From NCBI GenBank assembly GCA_002401345.1, contig NVSU01000005.1, forward strand, positions 1-54,153: a stretch of 54,153 nt of DNA. The letters run 5' to 3'. The notes beneath the pieces are model-generated. The model worked only from the letters and a program-made list of their open reading frames with translations. It was not told the DNA's origin and did no database searches. This document shows positions 4,166 through 53,915 of the stretch, piece by piece (within the stretch, counting starts at the first letter, position 1; each line of letters begins with the position of its first letter). The translations under genes and the position numbers were made by a program. Source of the stretch: Candidatus Wolfebacteria bacterium. GTDB lineage: Bacteria > Patescibacteriota > Minisyncoccia > Phycocordibacterales > NVSU01.

Positions 4166-4205
4166 GTTTATTATTGTATCACCAACACCTTGATTCTCAA
4201 TTTCA

Positions 4206-4237
4206 ATAAAAAAACCGCCCAATCAATCCGGCGGTTT
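4206..4237 (-). terminator. Rho-independent terminator of the 4243-4680 gene
   Basis: aaaccgcc / ggcggttt stem with an A-run on the plus strand (U-run on the minus transcript). Confidence 0.6.
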
Positions 4238-12688: not shown

Positions 12689-12716
12689 ATTATACATAAG
12701 TGTCAAAAATTGTCAA
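12689..12716 (-). promoter_or_regulatory. Sigma70 promoter (TTGACA-N16-TATAAT)
   Basis: tgtcaa at 12711-12716, attata at 12689-12694 (minus-strand reading). Confidence 0.65.
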
Positions 12717-12780
12717 GTATTTACAAAGCCCCCTATTTCCATGCATTTGCAGTGCTATTTTGCTATACTTGAACCAAATC

Positions 12781-17635: not shown

Positions 17636-17673
17636 TGTTTCTTGTTTTTATATTTTAATGTTTTAATGTTTAT

Positions 17674-17793
17674 ATGAATCCCGTTAGAGATCACAATGTT
17701 ATGAAAGCGGAATATAGAATTTTAAAAGAAATAATTTACAATAATTACGATAGGTATGAGTTACACGGAAATGTAACCATTTCCTATCTCTAA
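17674..17793 (+). CDS. 39-codon small ORF (MNPV cassette peptide) immediately upstream of ruvC
   Basis: MNPVRDHNVMKAEYRILKEIIYNNYDRYELHGNVTISYL. A same-length homolog lies at 45904-46023. TAA stop, then CGGG, then the ruvC ATG. Confidence 0.4.
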   Translation: MNPVRDHNVMKAEYRILKEIIYNNYDRYELHGNVTISYL

Positions 17794-17799
17794 CGGGAT
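17678..17799 (+). repeat. Inverted repeats of the MNPV cassette (atcccgttagagat / atctctaacgggat)
   Basis: Perfect 14-nt inverted repeat at 17678-17691 and 17786-17799. The right arm overlaps the first two nt of the ruvC start codon. Internal perfect hairpin ggaaatg-taac-catttcc. Confidence 0.8.
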
Positions 17800-18322
17800 G
17801 AAAATATTATCTATAGATCCAGGATATGAGCGCGTTGGTATTGCTATTCTTGAAAAGAATATCAATACGCCAGTTGCTAGAGGCCAGAAGCCAGAGGCTT
17901 TGATATATTCCAGTTGTTTTAAAACGGATGCCGCACTTCTTCTTACTGAACGCATTTCACTCATTGGAAATGAGATTAATCGTGTAATAAAAAAATATTC
18001 ACCAGATGCACTCGCTATAGAAACTCTTTTCTTCACAGTTAATAAAAAAACTGCAATGGGTGTAGCTGAAGCACGTGGAGTAATTATGTATGAATGTTCA
18101 CAGGCTCATCTAAAAATATTTGAATATACTCCTCTTCAAATTAAGATCGCTGTTACAAGTTATGGAAAATCAACAAAAGATCAGGTGATAATGATGACAA
18201 AAAAATTGATCACTATGGATGAATCTATCACTTCAGATGATGAAATCGATGCCATTGCTATTGGATTAACCTGTTTTGCCCACGAAAAATCACTTACCTC
18301 AGCACCAAATTTTACAAAATAA
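17798..18322 (+). CDS. ruvC: Crossover junction endodeoxyribonuclease RuvC
   Basis: MKILSIDPGYERVGIAILE start and the ..DAIAIGL.. catalytic-Asp context. Confidence 0.85.
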   Translation: MKILSIDPGYERVGIAILEKNINTPVARGQKPEALIYSSCFKTDAALLLTERISLIGNEINRVIKKYSPDALAIETLFFTVNKKTAMGVAEARGVIMYECSQAHLKIFEYTPLQIKIAVTSYGKSTKDQVIMMTKKLITMDESITSDDEIDAIAIGLTCFAHEKSLTSAPNFTK

Positions 18323-22905: not shown

Positions 22906-24003
22906 TTATCTGTTCATTGGCATAATAAGGTATGTGAATGAATTATCAGATTGACCTTTAATTACAAGAGGTTTATTTTCCCCATTTAAATTAATTATAA
23001 TACTATCATGAGGTAATGATTGGAATGCATCCATAAAGTATTTAAAATTAAAACTCACATCTATATCATCCCCTGTAAGCGCTGCACTTACTTGGGTATT
23101 ATTCTCTCCTACATCAGCGTTTTTTGATTGCAGTTCAAATAATTTCTCAACTGGCTTCACACGCAGTGTTATTTGATTAAATTTATCAGAAAAAATATTG
23201 GACAATTTTAATGCATTCAGTAAATCAGTTTTTAATACTATTGCCTCTGTGGTATGTGTCTTAGGAATTATTTGCTTGTAATCAGGAAATACTCCATCGA
23301 TAATTCGTGATGATAAATATATACCATTTCCTGAAAACGATATTTGATTTTCACTAAATGTAATTTCAAGATCAGACTGCATATTGTCGAAAAGTCTAAT
23401 AATTTCAGGGATATTTTTAAATGGAATAATAATATTTTTAAATTCCCCTATCTTTTTAACTGGAATCTTCTTCTCAGCTAATCTAAATGAATCAGTAGAT
23501 ACAAATACAAGGAAATCTTCTTCAGAATATATATACACGCTTGAAATTTCTGGTTTTATATCTGAAACGGCAGCACTATAAAATACAGATTTCATACCAT
23601 CAATAAATTTATTAGCAGGAATGGTAATACTAGTACCAGTTACCATTGGTATAGTAGGGAAATCATCGTGAGGGTAATTTTTTACAAGAATACTGTTATT
23701 TGATGTTTGAATTGAAAGATTATCATTAATCAATTCAAGGTATACATTTTCATTCTGATTTATAGAAGAAAAAATATTTGATACTACACTTCCCTGAAGT
23801 GCTGCAACTCCCTCTTTTTCCACTTTAGCGGGAATTTCTATCTCAATACCCAAACTTAGGTTTGTTGCACGAATTTTAAGTTTTTTATCTGTGGCAATAA
23901 GTAATACAGAACTCAAAATAGGTAAGCTTAAATTTTTACCTGTAATTCGATCTGCTTGAGAAATTGCATTTTTTAGTTTTTCTATTGAACATTCTACTTT
24001 CAT
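22906..24003 (-). CDS. dnaN: DNA polymerase III beta sliding clamp
   Basis: 365 aa with a three-domain clamp-like pattern, directly downstream of dnaA. C-terminal ..YLIMPMN. Confidence 0.9.
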   Translation of the reverse strand: MKVECSIEKLKNAISQADRITGKNLSLPILSSVLLIATDKKLKIRATNLSLGIEIEIPAKVEKEGVAALQGSVVSNIFSSINQNENVYLELINDNLSIQTSNNSILVKNYPHDDFPTIPMVTGTSITIPANKFIDGMKSVFYSAAVSDIKPEISSVYIYSEEDFLVFVSTDSFRLAEKKIPVKKIGEFKNIIIPFKNIPEIIRLFDNMQSDLEITFSENQISFSGNGIYLSSRIIDGVFPDYKQIIPKTHTTEAIVLKTDLLNALKLSNIFSDKFNQITLRVKPVEKLFELQSKNADVGENNTQVSAALTGDDIDVSFNFKYFMDAFQSLPHDSIIINLNGENKPLVIKGQSDNSFTYLIMPMNR

Positions 24004-24268: not shown

Positions 24269-25627
24269 TTATTTCAACATGGCACGTAACTGTTCTACCT
24301 CTTGTGTAAGTGATGTATCAACTTTTAAATCTTTTTTTATTTTCAAACATGAATGAATAACAGTTGTGTGGTCTTTTCCTCCAAGTTTCTGTCCTATAAG
24401 TGGATAGGACACATTGAAATCCTCTCTTAAAATATACATAACTAATTGACGTGCTTTAACAATTTCTTTTCTACGAGTTTTTTCATATATAGATGCTTCT
24501 TCAATATTATAGAAACCAGATATCACTTTAACAATTTCAGCAATAGAAACGTTTTTCTTAGGCTGAATACTGTTTTTTATAAGGGTTTTTACTTCATTAA
24601 GAGTTAAATCTCTATTTTTTAGTTGAGTCTGACAAATTACAGAGTTTAGACTCCCTTCCAATTCACGAACATTTCCCTGTATAGCTGATGCAACATATTG
24701 GATTATTTCGTCAGGTAAAATAATTTCATTTTGTAAGAGTTTAGATTTTAAAATAGCTAATCGAGACTCAAATTCAGGTTCATTAATGTCAACTATCATT
24801 CCGGCCGCAAAACGAGATTTCAATCTGTCTTCAAGGCCAGGCATATAGTTAGGATGTTTATCAGATGAGAATATAATTTGTTTGTTGTTTTCATATAATG
24901 TATTAAACAGATGAAAAAGCTCTTCCTGAGTTTTTTCCTTATTTGAAACAAACTGAATGTCATCCATTATAATGACGTCATATTTTCTGTATTTTTCCTT
25001 AAACACATTAGGTTTGTTTTTTTGAAGCGAGGTTACATAGTCTACAGCGAACTTTTCAAGTGTAATGTACAATATTTTTTTACCATCATGTTTTTCTTTT
25101 ATTGCATTTCCTATTGCTTGTATTAAATGAGTTTTTCCTAATCCAGTACCCCCATAAATAAAGAATGGATTGTAGGACATACCAGGACTTTTTACTATTG
25201 CTTGTGCAGCAGCTTGTGCAAGTTCATTAAAAGGACCTACTACAAATGAGTCGAAGGTGTATCGAGCATTGAGATTGTCTTCCTTGTTGATATATAGATC
25301 ATTAAGAGGAAGTGTACTAGTAGTGAGTAATTTACTTTCTTCAGCAAGATTTTGTTGCTTGTTTTTTATATCAATTTTATAAATAACATATTCAACACTT
25401 CTCATTTTGTGGAATATGTCACCTACTGTTTTTGTGATAAGACTGTGATATTTATTAAATAACCAATCTTTTACAAACTCATTGGGAACACCAATATGAA
25501 CAATACCTTCTTCTTCCTTTAAAATATTGGTATTTTTAAACCATGTACTAAAATTAGCTTTAGAGAGGTTTAACTCAATTTCATCAAGGCATTCAGACCA
25601 AAGTTTTTCTTTATTCATAGTAGTCAT
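24269..25627 (-). CDS. dnaA: Chromosomal replication initiator DnaA
   Basis: Walker A GGTGLGKTHL, box VII and sensor motifs, and a C-terminal DNA-binding domain (..GGKDHTTVIHSC..). Confidence 0.95.
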   Translation of the reverse strand: MTTMNKEKLWSECLDEIELNLSKANFSTWFKNTNILKEEEGIVHIGVPNEFVKDWLFNKYHSLITKTVGDIFHKMRSVEYVIYKIDIKNKQQNLAEESKLLTTSTLPLNDLYINKEDNLNARYTFDSFVVGPFNELAQAAAQAIVKSPGMSYNPFFIYGGTGLGKTHLIQAIGNAIKEKHDGKKILYITLEKFAVDYVTSLQKNKPNVFKEKYRKYDVIIMDDIQFVSNKEKTQEELFHLFNTLYENNKQIIFSSDKHPNYMPGLEDRLKSRFAAGMIVDINEPEFESRLAILKSKLLQNEIILPDEIIQYVASAIQGNVRELEGSLNSVICQTQLKNRDLTLNEVKTLIKNSIQPKKNVSIAEIVKVISGFYNIEEASIYEKTRRKEIVKARQLVMYILREDFNVSYPLIGQKLGGKDHTTVIHSCLKIKKDLKVDTSLTQEVEQLRAMLK

Positions 25628-33263: not shown

Positions 33264-33941
33264 TTATTCTAGTTCTTTGTGAGCCTCTTCTTCCAGTTTC
33301 TTTATTTCTTCTTCCAGTATTTCAATTTTTTTGATTTCATCTTGAAGTTTTGTGTCTATGTGTTGCAGATCTTTGATTTCTTTTATGTCTTGTCCGAGCT
33401 CTTCCTTTAATTTTTTTAATGTGTCGAGTCCGGCGCGAACATCACTCTCATCATTTTGAATTTTAGATAGTATTTTATCGTGAAGTGCTTGTAGGTCATC
33501 CACTTTCTTCTTAAAGTTCGTTAGTTGTATTTCGGGGATACTCGTATCCGCTATAGACCCTATCTCTTTTTCTACTTGTGCCTCTAATTCTTTTATTTCA
33601 GTAGCAGTATCCTCTCCAGTCCGCTTCGACGAAGCTTCAGCGAGGCGAGTTGATGGAGGGGTCGCTACCTCTTCACTGGGTACAGGCTGTGTGGCAGTTT
33701 CAGGGATAATTATGTTATCAGCGTCTCCGCCAGCCCGCTTCGACTCAGCGAGGCGAGCTGGTGGATGAGTCTCTTCTGCTTTATCAGGTGTTGGTTGTGC
33801 AGGTGGTGGTACATTTGCATCAGCCTGCTCAGATGGCGCAGTTGTTTCTTTGGATGGTTGATTTTCATCAACAAATTCTACGTCAGGCGTAGTATCGGCA
33901 GTTGTATCAGTTGGAATTATTTTATTGTTATCATCATTCAT
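33264..33941 (-). CDS. Acidic Pro-rich / coiled-coil protein carrying two in-frame palindromic elements
   Basis: 225 aa, no signal peptide. PPARLAESKRAGG and PPSTRLAEASSKRTGE are encoded by the GC-rich palindromes. The C-terminal heptad-like EEEIKKLEEE is shared with the VirB4 tail. Confidence 0.5.
   Translation of the reverse strand: MNDDNNKIIPTDTTADTTPDVEFVDENQPSKETTAPSEQADANVPPPAQPTPDKAEETHPPARLAESKRAGGDADNIIIPETATQPVPSEEVATPPSTRLAEASSKRTGEDTATEIKELEAQVEKEIGSIADTSIPEIQLTNFKKKVDDLQALHDKILSKIQNDESDVRAGLDTLKKLKEELGQDIKEIKDLQHIDTKLQDEIKKIEILEEEIKKLEEEAHKELE
33614..33658. repeat. In-frame GC-rich palindromic element, copy with degenerate outer arms
   Basis: Core ccgcttcgacgaagcttcagcgaggcga is identical to the reverse complement of the core at 34239-34266. 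Confidence 0.8.
33727..33764. repeat. In-frame GC-rich palindromic element, 38-nt variant
   Basis: ccgccagc-ccgcttcgactcagcgaggcga-gctggtgg. Lacks the central 6 nt (gaagct) relative to the 44-nt form. Confidence 0.8.
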
Positions 33942-34007: not shown

Positions 34008-36179
34008 TTAAAGGTTTTTAAATTCTTCTTCAAGTGTTTTAATTTCATCCTCTATTTGCTGTTTGGTTGTTTCCATTTGTGCTATGCGACCTTTTTTCTT
34101 TTGTGGAGTGGGTTTCTTCTTTATGGGCGCTATTTCAGTGTCTGCGACTGGTATGGGTGTAGGTTGTTCGGGTGGTGCACTTTCTTCTGCGGTGACGGGT
34201 TCTTCTGTAATTTCAGGTTCTTTTTCTTCTCCGCCAGCTCGCCTCGCTGAAGCTTCGTCGAAGCGGGCTGGCGGATTTTCTTCCCTAGGTGGTGTTTCTA
34301 TTTCAGGGACAATAAGTTCCGGTTCCTCGAGTTCTTCTGCAGCTTTTGCTTCTGCGAGCTCCCTTTTAGCTTTTTGAATAGTGAGGAGTTGAGATGGATC
34401 TGAAGTGATAATTTGATCCTCAGTATATGAGGCGATGATTTTTATTGCGACGTGTTTCAATCCAGCAAAGAAAATTCCCTCACCAATATCAGATTCCAAT
34501 AGAAGAAACTTTTCTTCATCAGTGAGACTAAAGGTCTTTTGAAGAAGATCAATTGCACTAGGAGATTGTTTCAAGAGCAATTGAAGTGAAGAGTTTGTAA
34601 CAATTGGAACTCCATAAGGTGACTTCATAAAGTCCCCTACGTCCTGCGTAATAGTTGCGAGACCTAAAAAATATTTTCGGCCACGTTTTGCAATACTATA
34701 GAGGAACGATGCGGTGTCTTCTGATTTCATCATCCACCATGCCTCATCAACTACAAGTAGTCTTTTTTTCAAATTTTTTCGTACTGCATTCCAAATATAG
34801 TGAGTAATAATGTACATCGCTGCTGGCTTCAGCTCGTCTTCCATATCTCTCACAGAGAATACGATAAATTTTTTATTTATATCAATATTAGTTGGTTGGT
34901 TTATGAACTGAGCCCATGATCCCTTTGTATATTTACTGAGTCGCTGAACAATTGACTCACTTCCCTCCATTCCTGAGAGTACAAGTTCAAAATCTGAAAG
35001 CAGAGGGGGCTCAATGGTTGCAAAGTCTGACTCAGGTGTAATATCTTTAAGTGCATAGGTTTCGGAAATAGCTCGATCAATAATAGAGTCTTCTTCAGGA
35101 GTAAGACCACCAAGCATGATTCTAAAGAGCCCTACAAGTTGAATAATATTTGACCGTAATACGTCGGAAGGTGTCTCGTCTTCTCGTGGTGGTGGTAGGT
35201 CAAAGGGATTTATATGGTGCTGTGAAGACAGTGACATATTGAAATATCGGCCCCCCACAGCCTCAACAAGATAGGTGTACTCTTTCTCAGGGTCAATCAC
35301 AATCACATCTGTATCAAACATAAGTGATCTCAGTATCTCTAGTTTTGTTGCATAGCTTTTTCCTGCACCTGACTTTGCAAAGATGATCGAATTGTAATTT
35401 TCTAATGAAAATCTGTCAAAAATAACTAAACTCGCATTATGTCTATTTACTCCATAAAGAATTCCTTTATCTGAGGTGAGGTCAAATGATACAAATGGGA
35501 AAATACTCGACAGGGGTTCAGAATTTAGCTTTTGGTGCACCTTCAGTAAGTCTGTGCCTGTGGGAATCACACTCTTAAATCCTTCTTCTTGTTGGAAAAG
35601 TGCAGGTTTAATATATACAAGCTTTGCATCAAGGATTGATTTGATTTCATTTTCTATCTTAAAGAGTTCGGTTTCGTCATCTGCATAAATAGTTATATAG
35701 AGTCCCACTTCAAATATTTTTTGCTGAGCTTGTTGCAATGTATCACGCAATGATTCCAGGTCTTGGAATGCAGTATCAAGAATCGGATCTCGTACAAGTC
35801 CTCGCGCTCGTCGTGCATTGATCTGACTTTGCACTTCAGCAACTTTCTTCTGAAATTGTTTTAATATTTTTGCAGTATCAACTGGGTGTATAAAAATTGA
35901 AATATCGAAAATTTTATCAAGATTTATGATTGGAGAAAACCAATTATCTGTTAAAAAACGAGGATATGAAATAACAAAAAAGGTTCGAGCAATTTTTTCT
36001 CCTAGATTGAGAGATTTTGCATCTATCTTCAGTGCTGAAGGTGCAATAATATCCTGAAGCTCGAGCTTTGCTGCCTCATAAATATCTTCTGGAAGCACAG
36101 GAAGTACTGTAGGTTCTGGAGCGTGCACTCCTCCCTTTTTCTTTCCTATTTTTTTAAAAATGTTGTCGAATAGTGCCAT
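34008..36179 (-). CDS. virB4: VirB4-family T4SS ATPase (C-terminal two-thirds of a Gram-positive-type VirB4) with a disordered / coiled-coil tail
   Basis: IAPSALKI..RTFFVISYPRFL, Walker A KSGAGKSY, Walker B LLVVDEAW. Start set at ATG 36179 because the track start at 36200 is a GTG inside an inverted-repeat element. Confidence 0.85.
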   Translation of the reverse strand: MALFDNIFKKIGKKKGGVHAPEPTVLPVLPEDIYEAAKLELQDIIAPSALKIDAKSLNLGEKIARTFFVISYPRFLTDNWFSPIINLDKIFDISIFIHPVDTAKILKQFQKKVAEVQSQINARRARGLVRDPILDTAFQDLESLRDTLQQAQQKIFEVGLYITIYADDETELFKIENEIKSILDAKLVYIKPALFQQEEGFKSVIPTGTDLLKVHQKLNSEPLSSIFPFVSFDLTSDKGILYGVNRHNASLVIFDRFSLENYNSIIFAKSGAGKSYATKLEILRSLMFDTDVIVIDPEKEYTYLVEAVGGRYFNMSLSSQHHINPFDLPPPREDETPSDVLRSNIIQLVGLFRIMLGGLTPEEDSIIDRAISETYALKDITPESDFATIEPPLLSDFELVLSGMEGSESIVQRLSKYTKGSWAQFINQPTNIDINKKFIVFSVRDMEDELKPAAMYIITHYIWNAVRKNLKKRLLVVDEAWWMMKSEDTASFLYSIAKRGRKYFLGLATITQDVGDFMKSPYGVPIVTNSSLQLLLKQSPSAIDLLQKTFSLTDEEKFLLLESDIGEGIFFAGLKHVAIKIIASYTEDQIITSDPSQLLTIQKAKRELAEAKAAEELEEPELIVPEIETPPREENPPARFDEASARRAGGEEKEPEITEEPVTAEESAPPEQPTPIPVADTEIAPIKKKPTPQKKKGRIAQMETTKQQIEDEIKTLEEEFKNL
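34231..34274. repeat. In-frame GC-rich palindromic element, full 44-nt form
   Basis: ccgccagctcgcctcgctgaagcttcgtcgaagcgggctggcgg folds into a stem of about 22 bp with 2 mismatches. 32 of 44 nt are G/C by my count. Encodes NPPARFDEASARRAGGEEK. Confidence 0.85.
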
Positions 36180-36189
36180 AAATATTTTA

Positions 36190-36320
36190 GCATCTAGCAC
36201 CTAGGCACTAGCATCTAGTTTCGTTATTAATAAATGTAACATTTTTATAATTTTATTATTGATTTCTTTCATATTGAATTTAATTTTAAGGCTAGTTGCC
36301 AGTCGCTAGTGCCTAGGTGC
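36190..36320. repeat. Decayed four-helix-bundle cassette (inverted-repeat-bounded relic)
   Basis: Perfect 16-nt inverted repeat gcacctaggcactagc (36197-36212) / gctagtgcctaggtgc (36305-36320). The interior keeps a 23-codon remnant MKEINNKIIKMLHLLITKLDASA, which resembles the last helix of four-helix-bundle proteins. Confidence 0.65.
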
Positions 36321-36325
36321 TTTTA

Positions 36326-36967
36326 CTATTCTTCAAACTTTACAGTCCCAGTAGGATCACCGGGGTTAAATGTCTTATAAAAGAGCTCCACAACCTCTTC
36401 TGTGCCCAATTGAACACTTCGCACACCCATTCGTGCCAGTCCACCCTGGATGACCCCCACTCGTTGTTCGAGTTGTGATTGTTTTTCTGCAAAATCAATT
36501 CCCTCTTGTACCTTTGTTTTTTTCTTAGATGAAAAAATACTTGTGAGTCCCTTAAGTCCTGAAGCGGGACCAAGTGCGGGTGCAGTATAGGGAACGACTA
36601 TAATAAAACTTTTTGTCATAATATTACGCGACTCTGTGAAGTTTCTAATGAATTGTATATATTCACGAGTTTGAATTTTTAACAAAGGTTCTACCTGCTC
36701 TTTCATTCTATTTTCAAGAAGTATGATGTAGGGGCGGATGTCGAGTTTTCGTGATTGAACAACTATTTGTGTTGAGAAATCCAATGAATTCAAAAATGAC
36801 TGGAATTGACGAATTGTTGCATTCTGTTCATCAAGGGACTTTAATGAAAGATTTATTGATGAAGCCATGAGAACTGCTCGGAGTCCCCCATCTTTTAAAA
36901 CCACAATCCCATTTCGGATTTCTTTTATTGGGACAAAATTTTGAGTTGCTCGTGCTGCAAGTGCCAT
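36326..36967 (-). CDS. Protein resembling the N-terminal segment of Gram-positive (Tn916 Orf16 / CD1110-type) VirB4
   Basis: TQNFVPIKEIRNGIVVLKDGGLRAVLMASSINLSLKSLDEQ..FQSFLNSLDFSTQIVVQS... and ..MGVRSVQLGTEEVVELFYKTFNP follow the pattern I recall for the first ~220 aa of that family. No TM, no NTPase motif. Confidence 0.5.
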   Translation of the reverse strand: MALAARATQNFVPIKEIRNGIVVLKDGGLRAVLMASSINLSLKSLDEQNATIRQFQSFLNSLDFSTQIVVQSRKLDIRPYIILLENRMKEQVEPLLKIQTREYIQFIRNFTESRNIMTKSFIIVVPYTAPALGPASGLKGLTSIFSSKKKTKVQEGIDFAEKQSQLEQRVGVIQGGLARMGVRSVQLGTEEVVELFYKTFNPGDPTGTVKFEE

Positions 36968-36973
36968 ATATAT

Positions 36974-37413
36974 GAGTTAAGAGTTAAGAATAATGATTAA
37001 TGACTGAAAGTTTTAGATTTTTTAATTAATCCATTGATAAGTTTATGGGTTGTTACTGTTCTGTTTGCAATATCATTAGATCCTTTTTGATCTATGAACC
37101 CTAAATCCTTCGTGATTAATATTTGATTCTGAATTTCTGTAAGTGATCCAAGAGCTATCAAATAGAACCTTATTTTATCAGGATAAGAACCCCGACTAAA
37201 CCCTTCAGCTAAATTGGATGTTATTGAAACAGAGGCCCTTTTCATTTGTGAAGTTAGTCCAAATTGTTCTTCTCTTGGAAATTTTATTGTCATTTCATAC
37301 ATAATCATAACTAATTTATGGCCTTCTTTCCATGCATAAAGATCAGTAAAAGATTTAATTTTATTTTCTTCCTTATTCATACTTCATTATTCCTTAATCT
37401 TTATTCTTTATTG
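36974..37413 (-). mobile_element. Intact four-helix-bundle mini-cassette with imperfect inverted-repeat flanks
   Basis: ttaagaataatg (36984-36995) versus cattattccttaa (37385-37397), bracketing the 127-aa gene. The flanks overlap the stop codons of the cassette gene and of the upstream prgI-like gene. Confidence 0.6.
36997..37380 (-). CDS. Four-helix-bundle protein (23S rRNA intervening-sequence protein family)
   Basis: FTDLYAWKEGHKL, FPREEQFGLTSQMKRASVSITSNLAEGFSR, LIALGSLTEIQNQ. Confidence 0.8.
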   Translation of the reverse strand: MNKEENKIKSFTDLYAWKEGHKLVMIMYEMTIKFPREEQFGLTSQMKRASVSITSNLAEGFSRGSYPDKIRFYLIALGSLTEIQNQILITKDLGFIDQKGSNDIANRTVTTHKLINGLIKKSKTFSH

Positions 37414-37827
37414 TTCTTTTTCTTTCATATCCAACACATCAAGACTCCATGAAATATCTTTTAATCTGCCTTCAGAGAGCCGAGGAATATACGCTTTCTC
37501 TGATATTTCCTTTTCTTCTGGTGTAGGTTGTGTCGCAGCCTTCTTTTTTTTGCTCTTTTTCCATATATAGAGTTTTCCCTGAAAAAGGTATTTTACGTAG
37601 GCTTCAAGAATGTATATAAACGGTTTATTGTTTATCTTATAGAACGTAAGTGCCAAAGAAAGTGATACCACAGGAATGATTATAAGTATGGCAATAAAAT
37701 TTGGAAGTACTTTGAATGCAACAAAGGATATTCCCGCACCCCCAATCAAATAGACAAACTGTTTGAACGTAAATGGTCCAAAGATTTTGTCTTCTATATC
37801 AATAAATTGTGGAACTCTAAATCTCAT
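37408..37827 (-). CDS. PrgI-family (VirB3-like) T4SS membrane protein
   Basis: VPQFIDIEDKIFGPFTFKQFVYLIGGAGISFVAF followed by a second TM helix. Confidence 0.7.
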   Translation of the reverse strand: MRFRVPQFIDIEDKIFGPFTFKQFVYLIGGAGISFVAFKVLPNFIAILIIIPVVSLSLALTFYKINNKPFIYILEAYVKYLFQGKLYIWKKSKKKKAATQPTPEEKEISEKAYIPRLSEGRLKDISWSLDVLDMKEKEQ

Positions 37828-37840
37828 ATATTAGCCTCTC

Positions 37841-38005
37841 GCACCTAGGCACTGGCACCTAGCATGCCTACGACAGGTAGCATTAATTTATTAATAAACG
37901 AATTTAACATTTTTATAATTTTATTGTTGATTTCTTTCATATTTAATATGTACATTGCAAATTTTTAATGATTGAGCTAGTTGCTAGGAGTTAATGACTA
38001 GGTGC
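37841..38005. repeat. Second decayed four-helix-bundle cassette
   Basis: gcacctaggcactggcacctagc / gctagttgctaggagttaatgactaggtgc flanks. A 40-nt core (aacatttttataattttattgttgatttctttcatatt) is nearly identical to 36239-36277. Remnant ORF MKEINNKIIKMLNSFINKLMLPVVGMLGASA. Confidence 0.65.
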
Positions 38006-38010
38006 TTTTA

Positions 38011-38802
38011 CTATTCTTGAATTCTTTCTCTGTAGGGATCTTGCGTTGGTCCTGTGTCTGAATAATCATGAGTCTCTCTTTTTAGTGTAAACGGCTCTTT
38101 TAATTTTTTCTCGACAATACTCTCTTTTGGAGTTGCTAATAGGGGTTCTTCCGTATGTGTTGGTATCTCTTTTTTTAAATCTTGTTGTAATGGAACGGTC
38201 GTCTGTTGTGGTAGTGGAACATATGAATTTTTCTTTGATTGTATTTTGACTCCAGAGGATTCCAATATTTTTTCATCTTTTGTGTCTATGGTCGGTATAT
38301 TTTTTTGAAGAGTAATGTCCTCTTGTGTCTCAGTCGCAACAATATCTATACCCGTTTTTTTTAATACCCCAATGTCCTTTGAAGGGAGATGCGATGGAGT
38401 AGTTGAAGGGAAATCTTCTTCCAATAATCGTTCAATATCTTCATCAGTGATATCAATTTCTGGTTTTTTCTGTGGAACTTCTGGTTCACCATGGAGATGT
38501 TTAAGTGCACTTCTAATTTTTTCAAATACTTGTGTGTTTATGTCATTAACAATCTGATCAACCTGTGTTGAAGAGAGGGATAGTGTACGCTTAAGATTTT
38601 TTGCAAAGTCTTTTGGATGGGACAGGCCGAGAATTATTAAATTACTTTCATAGACAAGTTTTCCAATATCAGAAACTGTAAGAGTGTGTTTCTTTCCTAT
38701 AGAGAGGATTTTTTCTCCCACACTTGCATCAAGAACCGCAGATCGTACATCATCTGGGAGCTTGCTAAATTTTTCAGTTATTTCTTTGCTTGAAAGTTTC
38801 AT
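38011..38802 (-). CDS. Hypothetical protein (no signal peptide)
   Basis: 263 aa. The N-domain ..ILSIGKKHTLTVSDIGKLVYESNLIILGLSHPKDFAKNL.. and C-terminal DPYRE resemble a domain I recall from other CPR hypothetical proteins. Confidence 0.45.
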   Translation of the reverse strand: MKLSSKEITEKFSKLPDDVRSAVLDASVGEKILSIGKKHTLTVSDIGKLVYESNLIILGLSHPKDFAKNLKRTLSLSSTQVDQIVNDINTQVFEKIRSALKHLHGEPEVPQKKPEIDITDEDIERLLEEDFPSTTPSHLPSKDIGVLKKTGIDIVATETQEDITLQKNIPTIDTKDEKILESSGVKIQSKKNSYVPLPQQTTVPLQQDLKKEIPTHTEEPLLATPKESIVEKKLKEPFTLKRETHDYSDTGPTQDPYRERIQE

Positions 38803-38825: not shown

Positions 38826-41285
38826 TTATTTCTTAGCTGAGTCTCCACTTTTTTTTGCTGAACCAATTTTTTCCTGGAGTTTTTCCTTTTGATCCTTCTT
38901 CTTTTCTATTTTCTCTTCTAACTTCTCTTGCGTGTCAATTATCGTTTCCATGCCTTTTATTTCTTGTTCTGCTCTCAGTATTTCCACCCTTGTTTCTGTC
39001 ATCTTTTGTTTGTCCCTTTCGTCGCCAGTGTTTTTGTATGCTACCTCGATAGTTTGTAATTGATTGTTTAATTCTGTTAATCGAGTTTGTTTTTCTGAAA
39101 CATCATAATTTATTTGCTCTTTTATTTGGGCTCTGGTGAGTGTATGTAGCTCCTCTGGTTTAATGTTATTTCGAAGCGCAGCATTAGTCTTAATTTTAGT
39201 GAGTATCTTATTTCCTTCTTTAACATCTATGTCAATATCTTCAATGTCATTGTCTAATTTTTTAATTGCCTTTTTGTAAGATTCCACTTTGTCAGTTGCA
39301 AGACCTTTTCTAAGTTCTAAGGCTGCACGTAAGTCACCTTGTGCAGCAAACGCAGCAGCCGGACCAGTAGGTGAAACCTTGCTAATAACTCCCAAGTTTT
39401 TAAGTAGAACCTGTGATGTACCAGCTTCAAGCGTATTAGCATAGTCAGTTTGACGTTGTTCATTAATTTTCTTTGAAGTGCTGACTTCAGGTGATCCAGT
39501 GATGGCTTCTCCCTTTACCGTTAATGGTTCCCCTTTTGTATAGGCATCTTTAAATTCTTTTTCATTAAAGATTTGCCCCTTGCCTTCAGTTTCTTCACGA
39601 GCATCATCTCTCATGTCTCCATAGGCTTTTTCCCAATTTCTGGCATTTTGATCTTGTCGAGCAGCCTCAAGTCCTTTCATTTTTATTTGTTCAAATAGAT
39701 CCATTCGTTCCTTCCTCCTTTCTTCGACACGTCCTTCATATCCACCTACTCCCGCGGCAGCTCCAAGACCAACTCCCTGCAGTACTCGATTATCAAGATT
39801 GATTCCACCCGCTCCAGCAGCTTCTGAAACCCCAGGAGCTTGGCGTATATCAAAACTTGCACCTCGTAGATAATTTGCTAATCGTAGCTTAGTCCGTGCA
39901 CCAAATTGTCCTTCAGCAGCAGCTTGTTGAAGTCCTTTACTCTCAGCTGCACCAGCAGCAGCTAGACCAGCTGTACTACGTAGGGCGAGGCCTCCTACTC
40001 CTGCAGCTGCACCAAGGGCAGCACCTCCAACGGCACCGACTTTTTTAGCTGCAGCTGTTACTACCTTACCGGCTTCACCTGCAAGATTTTCTGCAAGTTT
40101 TTTTGCCATGATAAGGAGCATGGCAATAATAGAGAGCGGGAATACTATATTTAATACTGCTTGAACTGTCGATAGATTCTCTCCCTTGCCAAATGCACTT
40201 CCAATAATATCAGTCTCAAGGAACATTACGATTAAAAAGAGGAAGAAAATAAAGACAGGAGCTAGAAAAGAAAGCTTGAGGAGATTTCCCCACCATTTTT
40301 GTTGAAAGTCACCTATTTGCGGGATGGCGTATGAGATAAATGCGAAAGGAGCAGAGATCATTACAATCCATAATCCAAGTGTACGGGCAATAAAAAGAAT
40401 TGCGACAGTAAAGAATACCCAAATGGCGACTATATTTATACCTGCAGCAAGTAAAGACACAAGTGAGAAAAAGGATGCATAGGCATCTCTACTCAAGCCC
40501 CTCGCTGTTAATATGCTTGAGGTAGGATCATTACTCACACGTTCAATGTTTGGCCCTGACGCAACTTGTGCAAAAAGTTTTTGTGGTTCAAATTTTGATA
40601 TGACGGCAATAGAAATAGACTTTGCTCCGCTGACTTTTACAAATTCTGCAGGACCGGTGACTTCTATCGCATTATAGAAAATCCTCGCAACGATATTTGA
40701 GCTATCAACAACAACTTTGGTGAAAAAGAGACTAAAGTTTATAAGAAGCGCGACTACCACAACATTTGCAATGGTTCTTTTTGTGTCAGCACCAGCGATG
40801 CCCAATATTGTTTTTATTGCTACAAATACAAGTATGAATATAAAGAGAATATTGGAGATATCCCTTGTGATCTTCCATCCTTCTGTAATAAATGAGGTGC
40901 CAGTATATGATGCACTATCAAGAGTGTAGGCAAGAGTAAAGTCCAAAAATTTTCCAATAAGCGCGAGAATAAATGCAGTAGGAACAAAAAGAATGTAGTA
41001 GATCACCTGCGCAATACATCCCATAACACCTCCTTGAGTGTCTTCACCAAATAAGTCACATGCGGGAAGTACGTTTTCATCTTTCGCAGGGTCAGTGTCA
41101 TCAAATTCACCTGTATGAGTGGCATATGCGACATTGGTGTGTACTGTGGGAGTGAGAGAAGTTGGGTGAATTGAAACAGAGACCGGAGAAAAGAAACCAA
41201 AGATAAATACCACAGCAAATACAAGAATGGCAAATTTTTTACCAAGTGTACTCTTATGTGTAGTTTTATTTGTTTTATTGTTCAT
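38826..41285 (-). CDS. Polytopic membrane protein, VirB6/TrbL (Tn916 Orf15)-like, with an Ala/Gly-rich segment and a K/E-rich coiled-coil tail
   Basis: 819 aa. Signal/TM, then about 7 hydrophobic helices. Position relative to prgI/virB4 fits the channel subunit. No sequence motif proof. Confidence 0.5.
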   Translation of the reverse strand: MNNKTNKTTHKSTLGKKFAILVFAVVFIFGFFSPVSVSIHPTSLTPTVHTNVAYATHTGEFDDTDPAKDENVLPACDLFGEDTQGGVMGCIAQVIYYILFVPTAFILALIGKFLDFTLAYTLDSASYTGTSFITEGWKITRDISNILFIFILVFVAIKTILGIAGADTKRTIANVVVVALLINFSLFFTKVVVDSSNIVARIFYNAIEVTGPAEFVKVSGAKSISIAVISKFEPQKLFAQVASGPNIERVSNDPTSSILTARGLSRDAYASFFSLVSLLAAGINIVAIWVFFTVAILFIARTLGLWIVMISAPFAFISYAIPQIGDFQQKWWGNLLKLSFLAPVFIFFLFLIVMFLETDIIGSAFGKGENLSTVQAVLNIVFPLSIIAMLLIMAKKLAENLAGEAGKVVTAAAKKVGAVGGAALGAAAGVGGLALRSTAGLAAAGAAESKGLQQAAAEGQFGARTKLRLANYLRGASFDIRQAPGVSEAAGAGGINLDNRVLQGVGLGAAAGVGGYEGRVEERRKERMDLFEQIKMKGLEAARQDQNARNWEKAYGDMRDDAREETEGKGQIFNEKEFKDAYTKGEPLTVKGEAITGSPEVSTSKKINEQRQTDYANTLEAGTSQVLLKNLGVISKVSPTGPAAAFAAQGDLRAALELRKGLATDKVESYKKAIKKLDNDIEDIDIDVKEGNKILTKIKTNAALRNNIKPEELHTLTRAQIKEQINYDVSEKQTRLTELNNQLQTIEVAYKNTGDERDKQKMTETRVEILRAEQEIKGMETIIDTQEKLEEKIEKKKDQKEKLQEKIGSAKKSGDSAKK

Positions 41286-45020: not shown

Positions 45021-45899
45021 CTAAGAATTGATTCCTTTTGTGAGACATTTCCAGTCGTTCAAAGTAAGATTTTCAGCCCGAGAATTATCTGGTAATGCAC
45101 ATGCACTCAGAATTTCTTTTTTATCTGTCTGAATGGATGACTTTTCGGTCTCATTAAAAAGAGGTTTAATGTTGCTCATGAGTAATTTTCGTTTATGTGA
45201 GAATCCAGCCTTCAGAACTTTAAAAAAATCTGTTTCGTTTATGGTATCAAAAAAATCTCGTGATATTTTGCGTACAGAAAGTATAGCTGAGTCTACTTTT
45301 GGGGCAGGAGAGAATAGTCGAGCAGGTACTTTTTCTACATACGTTGGCATTCCATATGCCTTTACACTTATTGAGAGAATGCTTTCCCTAAATCGCCTTT
45401 CGGGCGATCGGGCGACTGCGCCCGCTGGGCGCGGTTTAGCCTTTTTTCTTCGTTTTTCTATCCCAACAATTCGACGGGCAACTTCTTTTTGAACAAGTAT
45501 GGTAATAATTTCTGGTTGATGTTCTGTTTCGAGGAATTTTTTTAATATTGCCCCTGTAATGTAATACGGTATATTGGCCACTATTTTATAGGGGTTTTTA
45601 TCCAAATCAGCACTTTTAGGTTCAAAATCGAGAATATCTCCCTCGAGTAGGGTAAGTGTCCCTTTGTCTATCTCTTTTTTGAACTTTTCTTTTAAATATT
45701 CGACTAGTCTAGTGTCTTTTTCAATTGCGATAATTTTTTTTGCATGTGTCAGAAGTTTTTCTGTGAGGATTCCCTTCCCGGGACCGATTTCTAACACAAT
45801 ATCGTTCTCATTTATATTAGATGCATTCAACATAGACATCACAACTTTCTGTGATTTTAGGAAATTTTGTCCAAAAGTTTTGTTTGGTCTGAGGTTCAT
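45021..45899 (-). CDS. rsmA: 16S rRNA (adenine1518/1519-N6)-dimethyltransferase RsmA/KsgA with an internal insertion
   Basis: FGQNFL, VLEIGPGKGILTEKL, VANIPYYITG, VQKEVARRI, PKVDSAIL. An extra basic segment KRRKKAKPRPAGAVARSPERRFRES follows VQKEVARRIVG. Confidence 0.9.
   Translation of the reverse strand: MNLRPNKTFGQNFLKSQKVVMSMLNASNINENDIVLEIGPGKGILTEKLLTHAKKIIAIEKDTRLVEYLKEKFKKEIDKGTLTLLEGDILDFEPKSADLDKNPYKIVANIPYYITGAILKKFLETEHQPEIITILVQKEVARRIVGIEKRRKKAKPRPAGAVARSPERRFRESILSISVKAYGMPTYVEKVPARLFSPAPKVDSAILSVRKISRDFFDTINETDFFKVLKAGFSHKRKLLMSNIKPLFNETEKSSIQTDKKEILSACALPDNSRAENLTLNDWKCLTKGINS
45392..45441. repeat. GC-rich multi-hairpin insertion inside rsmA
   Basis: atcgcc-tttcg-ggcgat and cgggcg-actg-cgcccg (alternative gcgccc-gct-gggcgc). 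36 of 50 nt are G/C by my count, in an AT-rich gene. Confidence 0.7.
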
Positions 45900-51698: not shown

Positions 51699-53915
51699 TT
51701 ATTTTGCTTGTGGAGGAAAGAAATCGGGATTTGCTTTTTTGATTGAGAGGTTGATCCTTCCTTTTTCATCAACTTTTATAACTTCAACAGGGACTACGTC
51801 TCCAATTTTAAGTAGAGATTCAACGTTATCAACTCTGTAGGGTGCAATTTCTGAGATATGAACCATTCCATCATTTTGACTGTTACCTAATTGTACAAAT
51901 GCACCAAAATCAAGAACTTTAACAACTTTTCCTTCAAGTTTTTCTCCCACACTGTATTCGTGAGTAATATCCTCAATTATTTTCAATGCTGCTGCTGCAC
52001 CATCACTTGATCCAGTTATGTAAATCATTCCATCATCCTCTATTTGAATATCAGTACCTGTTTTTTCTCGTATTTCATTTATAACCTTTCCACCAGATCC
52101 AATTACAAGACCAATTTGTTTTGGTTTGATTTGTGTAGTTAATATTTTGGGTGCATTTGTAGAAATATCTTCACGTGGCTTTGCAATTTCACTCTCTATA
52201 ACATCCAATATTCCAAGTCGTGCCTTCTTTGCTTCAACTAATGCCTCTTTCAAGATTTGCGGAGGAATTCCATCAACTTTAATATCGAGTTGGAGCGCAG
52301 TCACACCTTCACGTGTCCCTGCAACCTTGAAGTCCATGTCTCCGTGGTGATCTTCTGGACCTTGAATATCTGTGAGTATTTTATATTTTGATGAGTCTTC
52401 GTCTATCATAAGACCCATGGCAATTCCAGCAACAGGTGCTTTTATTGGAACACCACCATCCATAAGTGCGATTGTTGATCCACATATTGCGGCTTGAGAC
52501 GTTGATCCATTCGATGCCATTGATTCTGATACGAGACGAATTGTATAAGGGAAATCATCTAAGGAAGGGATAATAGGTCGAAGTGCTTTCTCTGCAAGCA
52601 TTCCGTGTCCAATTTCCCGTCGATTAGTAAATCCTACACGTCCAGTTTCTCCCGCAGAATATGGAGGGAAATTGTAATGATGCATAAAGTGTTTCTTTTC
52701 TTTTGATTTCATTCCTTCATAAAGATATGTTGCATCGGGTCCGGCAAGCGTAAGAGTGGAGAGAATATGCGTTTCTCCTCGATAAAATATTCCAGAACCA
52801 TGTAATACAGGTGAGACTCCGCCAGCTTGTGCGAAAATGTTTCGCACTGTATCCATTGCACGTCCATCTGCCCTCTTTTCATTTTCAAGTGCTCCCTTAT
52901 GGAGTACGTCATCTATGTGTAGATAAAATAGTTCGCCTGCAAATCCTTTTACTTTTCCTTCGTCCAGTCCATATTTTTCAACAAGTGTATCTGATATATG
53001 TGCGACTTCTTCCATCCATTCGTTTTCTAATTCACTAATCTCTCGCTTTCCCATATGTGGCTCGTGCCAGATGTTTCTGGGGTGTACTTCCACTTTTGAG
53101 TCTGTACTACTTGTAAACAGCGCGTCTTCCATCTTTGGAGATATTTTTTCAATGAAAAGTGTCTTTAATTCTTCTGGAGTTTCAAGTTTTGCTATAACTT
53201 TCTTTTCTTTACCCATTTCGACTACTATATCTTTTTGGAATTTTTCTAATTTTGAAATTTCTTCTACTGCTCGATCAAATATTTCACCGATTTCATCTTC
53301 TTTTTTTTCAAATGACATCGCTTCAATCATATTGATGTTGCCATCTTTCCCACACACAATCAGATCTAAATCGAATAATTCTTCCTTTATAACTGCTTCA
53401 TTTGGTCGTGGTTGAAGATGAGAGTTCACTATTATTTCGCTTTCTCCTTTGAGTTTTCCTATTTGAATTGCTCCGACAGGTCCTTTCCATGGAATATCTG
53501 AAACAGCGAGGGCCAGAGATGCGGCGTTTACTGCCAAAATAGCTGGATCTTGTTTTCCCACAGATAACACTGTCACAATAACTTGAATTGCATTTTTAAT
53601 GTGTTTCTCAAAAAGAGGTCGTATTGTTCGGTCGATCACACGTGCAGCGAGTATTGCTTCATCTGATGGTCTTCCTTCCCTTCTCATAAATCTACTTCCA
53701 AGAATTTCTCCTGCTGCATAGTATTTTTCTAAATAGTCGACTGTGAGGTTAAAAAAACCTAAATCACGCTCCCCGGCTGACATTGCCGTAGTTGCAAGCA
53801 CAACAGTATCCTCAGATTCTAAAATAACTGAGCCATTTGCTTGATTTGCAAGATCTGAAAAACGAGCGGTAATTGTTTTTCCGCCTATTTCAATAGAGTA
53901 TTCTTTTTTATTCAT
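51699..53915 (-). CDS. pnp: Polyribonucleotide nucleotidyltransferase (PNPase)
   Basis: Two RNase PH-like domains (..FPPYSAGETGR.., ..DHHGDMDFKVAGT..), KH (IGLVIGSGGKVINEI) and S1 (GKVVKVLDFGAFV). Confidence 0.95.
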   Translation of the reverse strand: MNKKEYSIEIGGKTITARFSDLANQANGSVILESEDTVVLATTAMSAGERDLGFFNLTVDYLEKYYAAGEILGSRFMRREGRPSDEAILAARVIDRTIRPLFEKHIKNAIQVIVTVLSVGKQDPAILAVNAASLALAVSDIPWKGPVGAIQIGKLKGESEIIVNSHLQPRPNEAVIKEELFDLDLIVCGKDGNINMIEAMSFEKKEDEIGEIFDRAVEEISKLEKFQKDIVVEMGKEKKVIAKLETPEELKTLFIEKISPKMEDALFTSSTDSKVEVHPRNIWHEPHMGKREISELENEWMEEVAHISDTLVEKYGLDEGKVKGFAGELFYLHIDDVLHKGALENEKRADGRAMDTVRNIFAQAGGVSPVLHGSGIFYRGETHILSTLTLAGPDATYLYEGMKSKEKKHFMHHYNFPPYSAGETGRVGFTNRREIGHGMLAEKALRPIIPSLDDFPYTIRLVSESMASNGSTSQAAICGSTIALMDGGVPIKAPVAGIAMGLMIDEDSSKYKILTDIQGPEDHHGDMDFKVAGTREGVTALQLDIKVDGIPPQILKEALVEAKKARLGILDVIESEIAKPREDISTNAPKILTTQIKPKQIGLVIGSGGKVINEIREKTGTDIQIEDDGMIYITGSSDGAAAALKIIEDITHEYSVGEKLEGKVVKVLDFGAFVQLGNSQNDGMVHISEIAPYRVDNVESLLKIGDVVPVEVIKVDEKGRINLSIKKANPDFFPPQAK

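Follow-up and report, generated by a model that had tools for sequence, protein, structure and literature searches.

The staphylococcal conjugation systems of the pGO1/pSK41 type (MPF_FATA), with their TrsD and TrsE (VirB4) proteins, share with the TrsD and VirB4 pair of Patescibacteria a stand-alone protein of about 200 amino acids (aa), a homologue of the N-terminal part of VirB4 that is encoded directly upstream of virB4 and after a gene of the PrgI/VirB3 type. TrsD is the most abundant component of the type IV secretion systems (T4SS) of Patescibacteria; 1,664 of its 2,272 homologues adjoin virB4, and for Southlakia epibionticum it is essential (PMC12102498). Here we consider a stretch of 54,153 nucleotides (nt) of contig NVSU01000005.1, hereafter the window, in which a VirB4-type protein is encoded by two consecutive open reading frames (ORFs), set apart by a spacer that an inverted-repeat cassette fills. 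A first, sequence-only reading of this DNA proposed that insertion of the cassette had generated, or now maintained, the split of an essential ATPase. We favour a different structural and evolutionary account, to which we assign a probability of about 0.85: the two genes form an ancestral TrsD and VirB4 pair, and cassettes of the S23p/IVP type came later, at junctions that existed before them.

Cassettes of this type have so far been known mainly from 23S rRNA, and to our knowledge the function of the ORF carried by these intervening sequences (IVSs) has been an open question since 1993. In the 23S rRNA IVS of Coxiella burnetii, terminal inverted repeats pair into a 28-bp stem within which RNase III cleaves, tandem heptamers precede the S23p ORF, and this ORF is undergoing reductive evolution (PMC4990558). 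Genes of the 23S_rRNA_IVP family (PF05635) have also been reported inside cas loci, and an RxxxSxxxNxxE motif has been described for the proteins (PMC3936711). The description of the Patescibacteria T4SS makes no mention of IVP genes or hairpins (PMC12102498). In the window, the genes of the region all lie on the minus strand; besides two further ORFs, they and their cassettes are as follows.

38826-41285, minus strand: ORF of 819 aa, the first in this order
38011-38802, minus strand: conserved operon protein, 263 aa, ending in DPYRExxE, with syntenic tblastn matches in most related loci
37826-38021, minus strand: cassette 2, paralogous to cassette 1 but further decayed, in the junction from the 263-aa ORF to prgI
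37408-37827, minus strand: PrgI/VirB3-like small membrane protein, 139 aa (PF12666 PrgI, E = 7e-10)
36974-37406, minus strand: intact IVP cassette, a PF05635 gene with flanking inverted repeats, in the junction from prgI to the TrsD-like gene
36326-36967, minus strand: ORF-N, stand-alone TrsD-like protein of 213 aa, homologous to the N-terminal domain of VirB4 by its NCBIfam profile matches
36182-36336, minus strand: cassette 1, a probable internally deleted IVP (S23p) cassette in the spacer between the two genes, with inverted repeat, hairpin and a remnant matching an IVP hidden Markov model (HMM)
34008-36179, minus strand: ORF-C, the VirB4 ATPase proper, 723 aa, with linker, ATPase domain and Glu/Pro-rich tail

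The sequence-only reading took ORF-N for the N-terminal part of a Gram-positive VirB4, and the NCBIfam profiles bear this out. ORF-N matches positions 2-119 of the 752 in conju_CD1110 (E = 9e-6), positions 102-230 of the 894 in VirB4_plasma (E = 7e-10) and positions 16-142 of the 201 in TrsD/TraD (NF041427; E = 1e-7), the last with a score of 31.8 bits, which lies far below the NCBIfam cut-off of 200. Precomputed annotation places it in PF26593, 'TraC-like'; a local Pfam scan gave no match, even at E = 10, and a sequence-profile search of the PDB gave none either. The best fold matches in the PDB of its AlphaFold 2 model (predicted local distance difference test 71) are the TrwK/VirB4 chains of R388, which are weak (E between 0.01 and 0.1). 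ORF-N is a distant homologue of TrsD/TraD that the TraC-like family of Pfam describes better. We also noted that PHROG 2666 ('terminase large subunit') matches its residues 26-150 (E = 3e-9), which may betray an N-domain common to packaging ATPases or else a mis-annotated PHROG.

The ATPase itself is borne by ORF-C, which matches conju_CD1110 (NF045971) from position 182 to position 733 with 374.4 bits, above the cut-off of 325, has Pfam matches to P-loop_TraG, AAA_10 and DUF87, and is related to the C-terminal domain of VirB4 in PDB entry 4ag5 (E = 1e-39). Its Walker A motif, AKSGAGKS, occupies residues 268-275 and its Walker B motif, LLVVDE, residues 474-479. It had been observed at the outset that this ORF begins about 50 residues ahead of an IAPS...YPR segment, and IAPS does start at residue 53, with the YPR motif after it. 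Residue 263 is aligned to residue 446 of TrwK, and therefore ORF-C is devoid of about 180 N-terminal residues of a canonical VirB4; profile alignments likewise show that it does not, alone, span the full N-terminal region. No single polypeptide covers the conju_CD1110 profile, as a stop codon and 146 nt part ORF-N from ORF-C. The N-terminus of ORF-C, MALFDNIFKK, fits the conserved start of its orthologues, M(G/S)IFDKLFGK (pattern MxxFDxxF), and its Glu/Pro-rich tail of about 105 aa is lineage-specific. Most orthologous loci, in which a VirB4 of about 616 aa is directly followed by an ORF of 331 aa, have neither this tail (34008-34370) nor the 225-aa ORF that comes next in the window (33264-33941); a long tail or an extra segment is found in a few relatives (L036, L048, L071, L072 and L076, the L-numbers designating related loci).

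The two ORFs are moreover collinear with the N- and C-parts of a single-chain VirB4. A profile search of 1.84 billion cluster representatives returned 3,075 clusters (at 50% identity); among the best 150 representatives, 149 are proteins of 116-443 aa, too short for a fusion, and one is fused. This TrsD-VirB4 protein of 797 aa, from Candidatus Colwellbacteria (three assemblies; P0224 / MBI3088895.1, MBI2506916.1), aligns through its residues 1-210 to ORF-N, with 41% identity, and through its residues 230-791 to residues 41-601 of ORF-C, with 56% identity. Like the single-chain VirB4 of CD1110 or Orf16 of Tn916, it runs parallel to the pair over both ORFs; unlike in these proteins, there are two polypeptides in the window, as in the 79 related species described below, and the short linker gives way to about 40 residues found where ORF-N ends and ORF-C starts. 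Collinearity with a naturally fused relative supports modelling TrsD as a detached N-domain of VirB4.

How old this division is can be judged from a census of orthologues, which took one genome per species and retained the best 80 of 559 loci (62-68% aa identity), labelled mostly Nomurabacteria/Paceibacteria, with some records under other or generic labels. Both halves are separate, adjacent ORFs in all of the 79 loci that hold both, each from a distinct species, and the order prgI, (IVP), trsD-like gene, virB4 is that of the window and of every one of the 79. The genes are split at the same point, within a few codons, and mostly without a cassette: the spacer between trsD and virB4 has a median of 6 nt, with 43 spacers of at most 7 nt and about 20 of at least 45 nt, and in the closest relative found (75% aa identity) it measures 32 nt. 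The TrsD-like gene is directly preceded by prgI, at a median distance of 9 nt in 76 loci. The N-gene is 211-222 aa long, its median over 81 loci, 213 aa, being exactly the length of ORF-N, and the orthologous VirB4 has a median of 616 aa; a broader search for homologues of ORF-N found 7,937 proteins, the best 120 of which are all 211-235 aa long. Relative to each other, the two genes are in frame 0 in 21 loci, in frame 1 in 35 and in frame 2 in 24. All three being common, there is therefore no conserved frameshift, read-through or recoding, and this spread rules out programmed recoding or read-through into a fused protein.

It follows from the separation of the genes in 79 of 79 species, from the median gap of 6 nt and from the published TrsD and VirB4 pair that the two-gene state is, as far as comparison of loci can tell, ancestral for the clade and far older than the cassette. 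ORF-N and ORF-C are the two parts of a VirB4-type protein, namely the normal TrsD and VirB4 pair of Patescibacteria. The idea of a split VirB4 holds insofar as the two ORFs match the N-part and the rest of the protein; it fails insofar as a lesion was implied, for this split is the published norm in Patescibacteria, an ordinary state of which the locus is one more member.

A mobile cassette that splits an essential ATPase would be striking, yet a causal role is refuted. That a cassette entered a once-continuous virB4, and split it or keeps it split, could invoke the existence of fused relatives (the 752-aa CD1110 profile and the 797-aa Colwellbacteria fusion), the fact that the cassette abuts the stop codon and the association of stop codons other than TAA with cassettes. 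It is nonetheless most improbable, given that 79 of 79 loci are split at the same point, most of them with a gap of 1-7 nt and no cassette, that the nearest relative has a spacer of 32 nt only, that the N-gene of the window has the median length found over 81 loci, and that the C-gene opens with the conserved MxxFDxxF N-terminus. In the related genomes the split is mostly found without a cassette. We consider practically negligible the chance that the split is an artefact (frameshift, assembly error or recent pseudogene): nothing beyond the existence of two ORFs speaks for it, while identical DNA is present in independent ENA and Logan assemblies, stand-alone homologues number thousands, and both ORFs are full-length when compared with their orthologues.

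That the 146-nt gap is largely occupied by a decayed inverted-repeat cassette, as first proposed, has proved right: cassette 1, about 155 nt long, fills it. The inverted repeat is real and perfect, each arm having 17 nt (36305-36321 for the 5' arm, 36196-36212 for the 3' arm; 100% complementary), that is, one base more than the 16 initially counted. Sought in the window at no more than three mismatches, the 16-mer has four matches against 0.07 expected, and none of 100 shuffles reaches four. The RNA of this spacer is predicted to fold into a hairpin with a minimum free energy (MFE) of -41.7 kcal/mol (z = -6.2). Cassette 2 is tied to cassette 1 by four direct repeats (D1, D3, D4 and D5). The two copies (about 155-195 nt), 1.6 kb apart, have segment identities of 79-97%, and the duplication takes in the entire spacer, which runs from the stop codon almost to the next ATG. 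The stop region that ORF-N shares with the junction at 38005-38030, already remarked upon in the sequence-only reading, is the edge of this duplicated cassette (36182-36336 compared with 37826-38021), the homology starting at AAGAATAG. The arms of cassette 2 (37982-38005 and 37841-37864) are 79% complementary; in both cassettes the arms are inverted arrays of CTAG-containing heptamers (CTAGnnn). Each cassette retains a short ORF that ends inside its 3' arm: in cassette 1, 23 aa at 36201-36272, reading MKEINNKIIKMLHLLITKLDASA before the stop, and in cassette 2, 31 aa at 37845-37940, reading MKEINNKIIKMLNSFINKLMLPVVGMLGASA before the stop.

These remnants point to the origin of the cassettes. 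When an HMM built from 11 IVP proteins was searched against the 2,537 six-frame peptides of the window, the remnant of cassette 2 ranked second and that of cassette 1 third, both aligning to the C-terminal helix of IVP (HMM positions 98-118). In DNA alignments, the two arms and some 22 final codons of each cassette match intact cassettes of the TAGGC type in L007 and L066. Because of these ranks and their register, of this alignment, and of the IVP genes that occupy the same slot in relatives (see below), we read cassettes 1 and 2 as internally deleted IVP (PF05635, S23p) cassettes. An intact copy stands between prgI and the TrsD-like gene. Its gene (36997-37380) encodes a four-helix bundle of 127 aa (PF05635 23S_rRNA_IVP, E = 2e-32) that carries the RxxxSxxxNxxE motif; its arms (36974-37003 and 37377-37406) are of a TTAAG/CTTAA type, 30 nt long with 73% complementarity, and the terminal stem appears in both the MFE and the centroid folds of the 451-nt RNA (z = -2.1). 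The window thereby shows one intact and two internally deleted IVP copies side by side.

Other identities were considered for cassettes 1 and 2. A functional micro-protein made from the remnant ORFs of 23 and 31 aa is unlikely, as these match the C-terminal helix of IVP and, like full-length genes, terminate in the 3' arm. An integron attC site does not fit inverted repeats that flank an ORF on both sides, and there is no integrase and no GTTRRRY core. A consensus scan of positions 35900-38200 found 8 promoter-like sites against 8.9 expected and no terminator-like site in the cassettes, which sets aside an intrinsic terminator or promoter cassette. As for known RNA families, Rfam at gathering score gave no match in the whole window, in which there is no rRNA; no tRNA was found there either.

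The junctions of related genomes hold a comparable series. A sensitive HMM search over 869 kb in 81 loci detected 14 IVP-like ORFs, all on the operon strand and all directly beside prgI, 13 of them upstream of it and the copy of the window alone downstream; the flanks of these loci, up to 6 kb on either side, held no IVP-like ORF elsewhere. The slot between the 263-aa ORF and prgI, where cassette 2 resides, is filled by an IVP-like ORF in 13 other species (HMM E < 1e-3), and 10 of these are intact genes (E at most 3e-52). Intact IVP genes are flanked by tandem units of 7-8 nt on one side and by their reverse complements on the other (for example TAGGCnn.../...nnGCCTA, TAGCTnn, AAAGTTnn and AATTACG), and their last codons extend into the 3' arm (for example, ending in MKMLNKLISQLEPKA). 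About a quarter of the species have an expanded spacer between prgI and trsD or between trsD and virB4; among spacers of 45-260 nt, a z below -3 is reached by 10 of 17 at the former junction and by 9 of 20 at the latter. Many are 'solo' stems, with heptamer arrays about 10 nt apart (L007, L011, L039 and L060), others partly deleted cassettes resembling those of the window (L032 and L035), so that intact, partly deleted and ORF-less versions occur at the same junctions.

Within one genome, the heptamer type around the IVP gene is also that of the ORF-less hairpins at the two other junctions (prgI to trsD and trsD to virB4). There are four IVP subfamilies, each with its own heptamer (TAGGC, TAGCT, AAAGTT and AATTACG), and when 5' arms are paired with 3' arms the duplex energies fall into diagonal blocks that follow the heptamer families, with about -26 to -50 kcal/mol in most pairs within a family versus -4 to -25 kcal/mol between families. 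This co-variation of whole arms points to selection that acts on pairing, or on the arms being recognised by a cognate protein, rather than to one fixed sequence, and it yields a testable hypothesis, namely sequence-specific binding of IVP to its own arms.

A further trait of the family bears on the suggestion that the element had supplied the stop codon of ORF-N. The N-gene stops at TAA in 69 of 80 loci and at TAG or TGA in the other 11; all of these 11 are found where the spacer measures at least 15 nt, and in the 47 loci below that length the stop is TAA throughout (Fisher p = 1.8e-5). In L011, L029, L039 and L060 the stop and the one or two codons before it fall within the first heptamer (with the sequence AGCTGATAGCT or GCAGCTAGGCC), and where orthologous N-genes end in KIKLE, ORF-N ends in VKFEE. 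Cassettes, as these junctions read, often overwrite the upstream stop codon. The suggestion is reasonable in this form, the stop supplied by the element having replaced one that already existed within a few codons.

We can now set the cassettes against known elements. Like the IVSs of 23S rRNA in Leptospira and in Coxiella (PMC4990558), they have inverted repeats that close a stem, a co-oriented PF05635 ORF and terminal tandem heptamers, and their ORF is prone to reductive evolution, hairpin versions without an ORF being found as well. Unlike those IVSs, which sit in helix 9, 25 or 45, the cassettes of the window lie between protein-coding T4SS cistrons, and the arms of such cassettes may extend over the stop codon of the preceding gene. 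The IVP genes of cas loci (PMC3936711) resemble them in placing PF05635, with the same RxxxSxxxNxxE motif, within an unrelated protein-coding operon; that report is one of gene co-occurrence, in which, unlike here, neither the anatomy of flanking hairpins and heptamers nor decayed derivatives are described. With miniature inverted-repeat transposable elements (MITEs), with repetitive extragenic palindromic sequences and their mosaic assemblies (REP/BIME) and with Rickettsia palindromic elements (RPEs) they have in common that they are short, multicopy, palindromic, barely coding or non-coding, and placed at gene boundaries; no target-site duplication or cognate transposase was identified for them, and their parent element encodes a four-helix-bundle protein instead of a transposase. 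Finally, whereas the T4SS of Patescibacteria as described (PMC12102498) has tight junctions, those of the window are widened by IVP cassettes.

We can picture the following course of events. The VirB4 function is encoded by a TrsD-like protein of about 213 aa and an ATPase of about 615 aa, after prgI/virB3 and normally almost contiguous; to judge from the VirB4-VirB3 complexes of R388 (structures 7o41 and 8rtb), PrgI, TrsD and VirB4 would assemble non-covalently, and the organisation of the operon suggests that the TrsD and VirB4 cistrons are normally coupled in translation. Hairpin-bounded S23p/IVP cassettes, each made of inverted tandem-heptamer arms around a four-helix-bundle ORF oriented as the host transcript, would later have entered three consecutive intercistronic junctions. 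Two of them would have lost about 300 nt of their ORF, leaving the arms and the last 20 or so codons, the third (36974-37406) remaining intact. Cassette 1 would have stretched the existing junction, until then a few nt long, to 146 nt, and the upstream gene probably had its stop and its final codon or codons overwritten in the process. In the polycistronic mRNA, a stem of about 17-26 bp could be a double-stranded substrate of the RNase III type, by analogy with rRNA IVSs and intercistronic RNase III sites; once cleaved or folded, it would break the coupling of the two cistrons, whose relative stability might change too, much as happens with IVS stems in rRNA. We propose this RNA-processing step tentatively and think it less likely than not.

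A wider reading, which we regard as possible while keeping real doubts, takes the IVP cassettes for a family that colonises the prgI, trsD and virB4 junctions in Paceibacteria. Each IVP subfamily having its own inverted heptamer array, the protein would therefore recognise its own flanking repeats or hairpin, which could serve mobility, maintenance or RNA processing, and the stems would be mRNA 'IVSs', cut by RNase III, that uncouple cistrons of an essential secretion machine.

Two other readings of the cassettes, not mutually exclusive, have to be weighed together. Hairpins might be intercistronic regulators selected by the host (for processing, mRNA stabilisation or attenuation) that tune the stoichiometry of PrgI, TrsD and VirB4, the IVP ORF being dispensable. 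Strong stems do outlast the ORF (L007, L011, L037, L039 and L060, with z between -6 and -9), the same two or three junctions bear them in roughly one species out of four, every IVP-like ORF across the 869 kb adjoins prgI, and for Coxiella it was argued that the RNA matters more than S23p (PMC4990558). Most species, however, do without a hairpin, their spacers being near zero; cassette 2 shows clear signs of decay, and the region displays no T-run terminator and no excess of promoters, so that we hold this reading to be unlikely. We hold quite unlikely that the cassettes are non-autonomous DNA transposons of the MITE kind, mobilised in trans, with IVP or an unlinked enzyme recognising the heptamer arms. 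The two paralogous copies with their terminal inverted repeats would suit such an origin, as would the co-variation of heptamer type with IVP subfamily in four families and a second inverted-repeat element family (described below) with near-identical 14-nt termini in different species; yet there are only two copies in the 54 kb, a metagenome scan for the cassette core had 0 matches, and local duplication or gene conversion between neighbouring junctions also accounts for the two copies.

Returning to the account that we prefer, of an ancestral pair with cassettes at pre-existing junctions, a number of observations weigh against it or restrict it. The census took in the best 80 of 559 loci and is thereby confined to relatives (Nomurabacteria/Paceibacteria) of 62-68% identity. 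The matches of the remnant ORFs to the IVP HMM are individually weak (E = 0.17 and 0.26), and the stem of cassette 2 is barely better than shuffles (z = -1.7). An intact IVP gene with arms of the CTAG type is not present in the window, whose intact copy has the other arm type. No target-site duplication is visible at either cassette copy, no mobility enzyme was found and no transposase lies nearby; nor is an RNase III gene available in the 54-kb window. Enrichment of hairpins in the operon relative to the flanks, up to 6 kb on either side, was not shown, as the threshold on sliding-window MFE did not discriminate; the ungapped inverted-repeat finder misses bulged heptamer stems, and no claim of enrichment rests on flank comparisons. 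An earlier description of IVS-type elements at mRNA junctions is possible, and their presence here may be a modest novelty. What the loci do provide is a comparative series of S23p/IVP cassettes outside rRNA, which ranges from intact through partly deleted to ORF-less copies and in which the arms vary in step with the protein subfamily, and with it a natural system where IVS-like stems reside in mRNA instead of rRNA.

As regards the surroundings, the 263-aa operon protein has no Pfam match, and the window contains the following landmarks.

1775-4222: PolA
12700-14484: PilB-type T2SSE ATPase
22906-24003: dnaN
24269-25627: dnaA
26720-27469: yidC
45021-45899: ksgA
51699-53915: PNPase

With dnaN, dnaA, yidC and ksgA flanking its T4SS cluster, the window covers the origin region of the chromosome. 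Like the T4SS of Paceibacteria, a chromosomal locus close to dnaA, the cluster has the features expected of an oriC-proximal T4SS typical of Patescibacteria, which fits the published description (PMC12102498).

The window holds other repeated elements. A palindrome of about 45 nt, rich in GC (57-67%, versus 35.8% for the window), has three copies inside coding DNA, in both orientations: one in the lineage-specific tail of VirB4 (34229-34275) and two in the 225-aa ORF that follows (33726-33765 and 33616-33658). The copies read PPARFDEASARRAGG, PPARLAESKRAGG and STRLAEASSKRTGE; their hairpins have a free energy between -17 and -33 kcal/mol, and none of 80 related loci has this palindrome, which resembles in-frame palindromic insertions such as the RPEs of Rickettsia.

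The second inverted-repeat element family occupies positions 17671-17806 and 1602-1761, with termini ATCCCGTTAGAGAT and ATCTCTAACGGGAT. Its 3' end, finishing in ACGGGATG, supplies the ATG of the downstream gene, that of RuvC (17798) and that of a PEMT-like ORF (1616, minus strand). In other species it supplies the ATG of prgI or virB4 (junctions of L021, L032, L035 and L065), and its termini are near-identical at T4SS junctions of different species.

Beyond virB4, a conserved motif resembling TATAAT (GGTATAATTAA or GATATAATTAA) lies shortly ahead of the next gene in many loci (for example L017, L019, L029, L044 and L047), which suggests an internal promoter at the junction between VirB4 and the 331-aa ORF.

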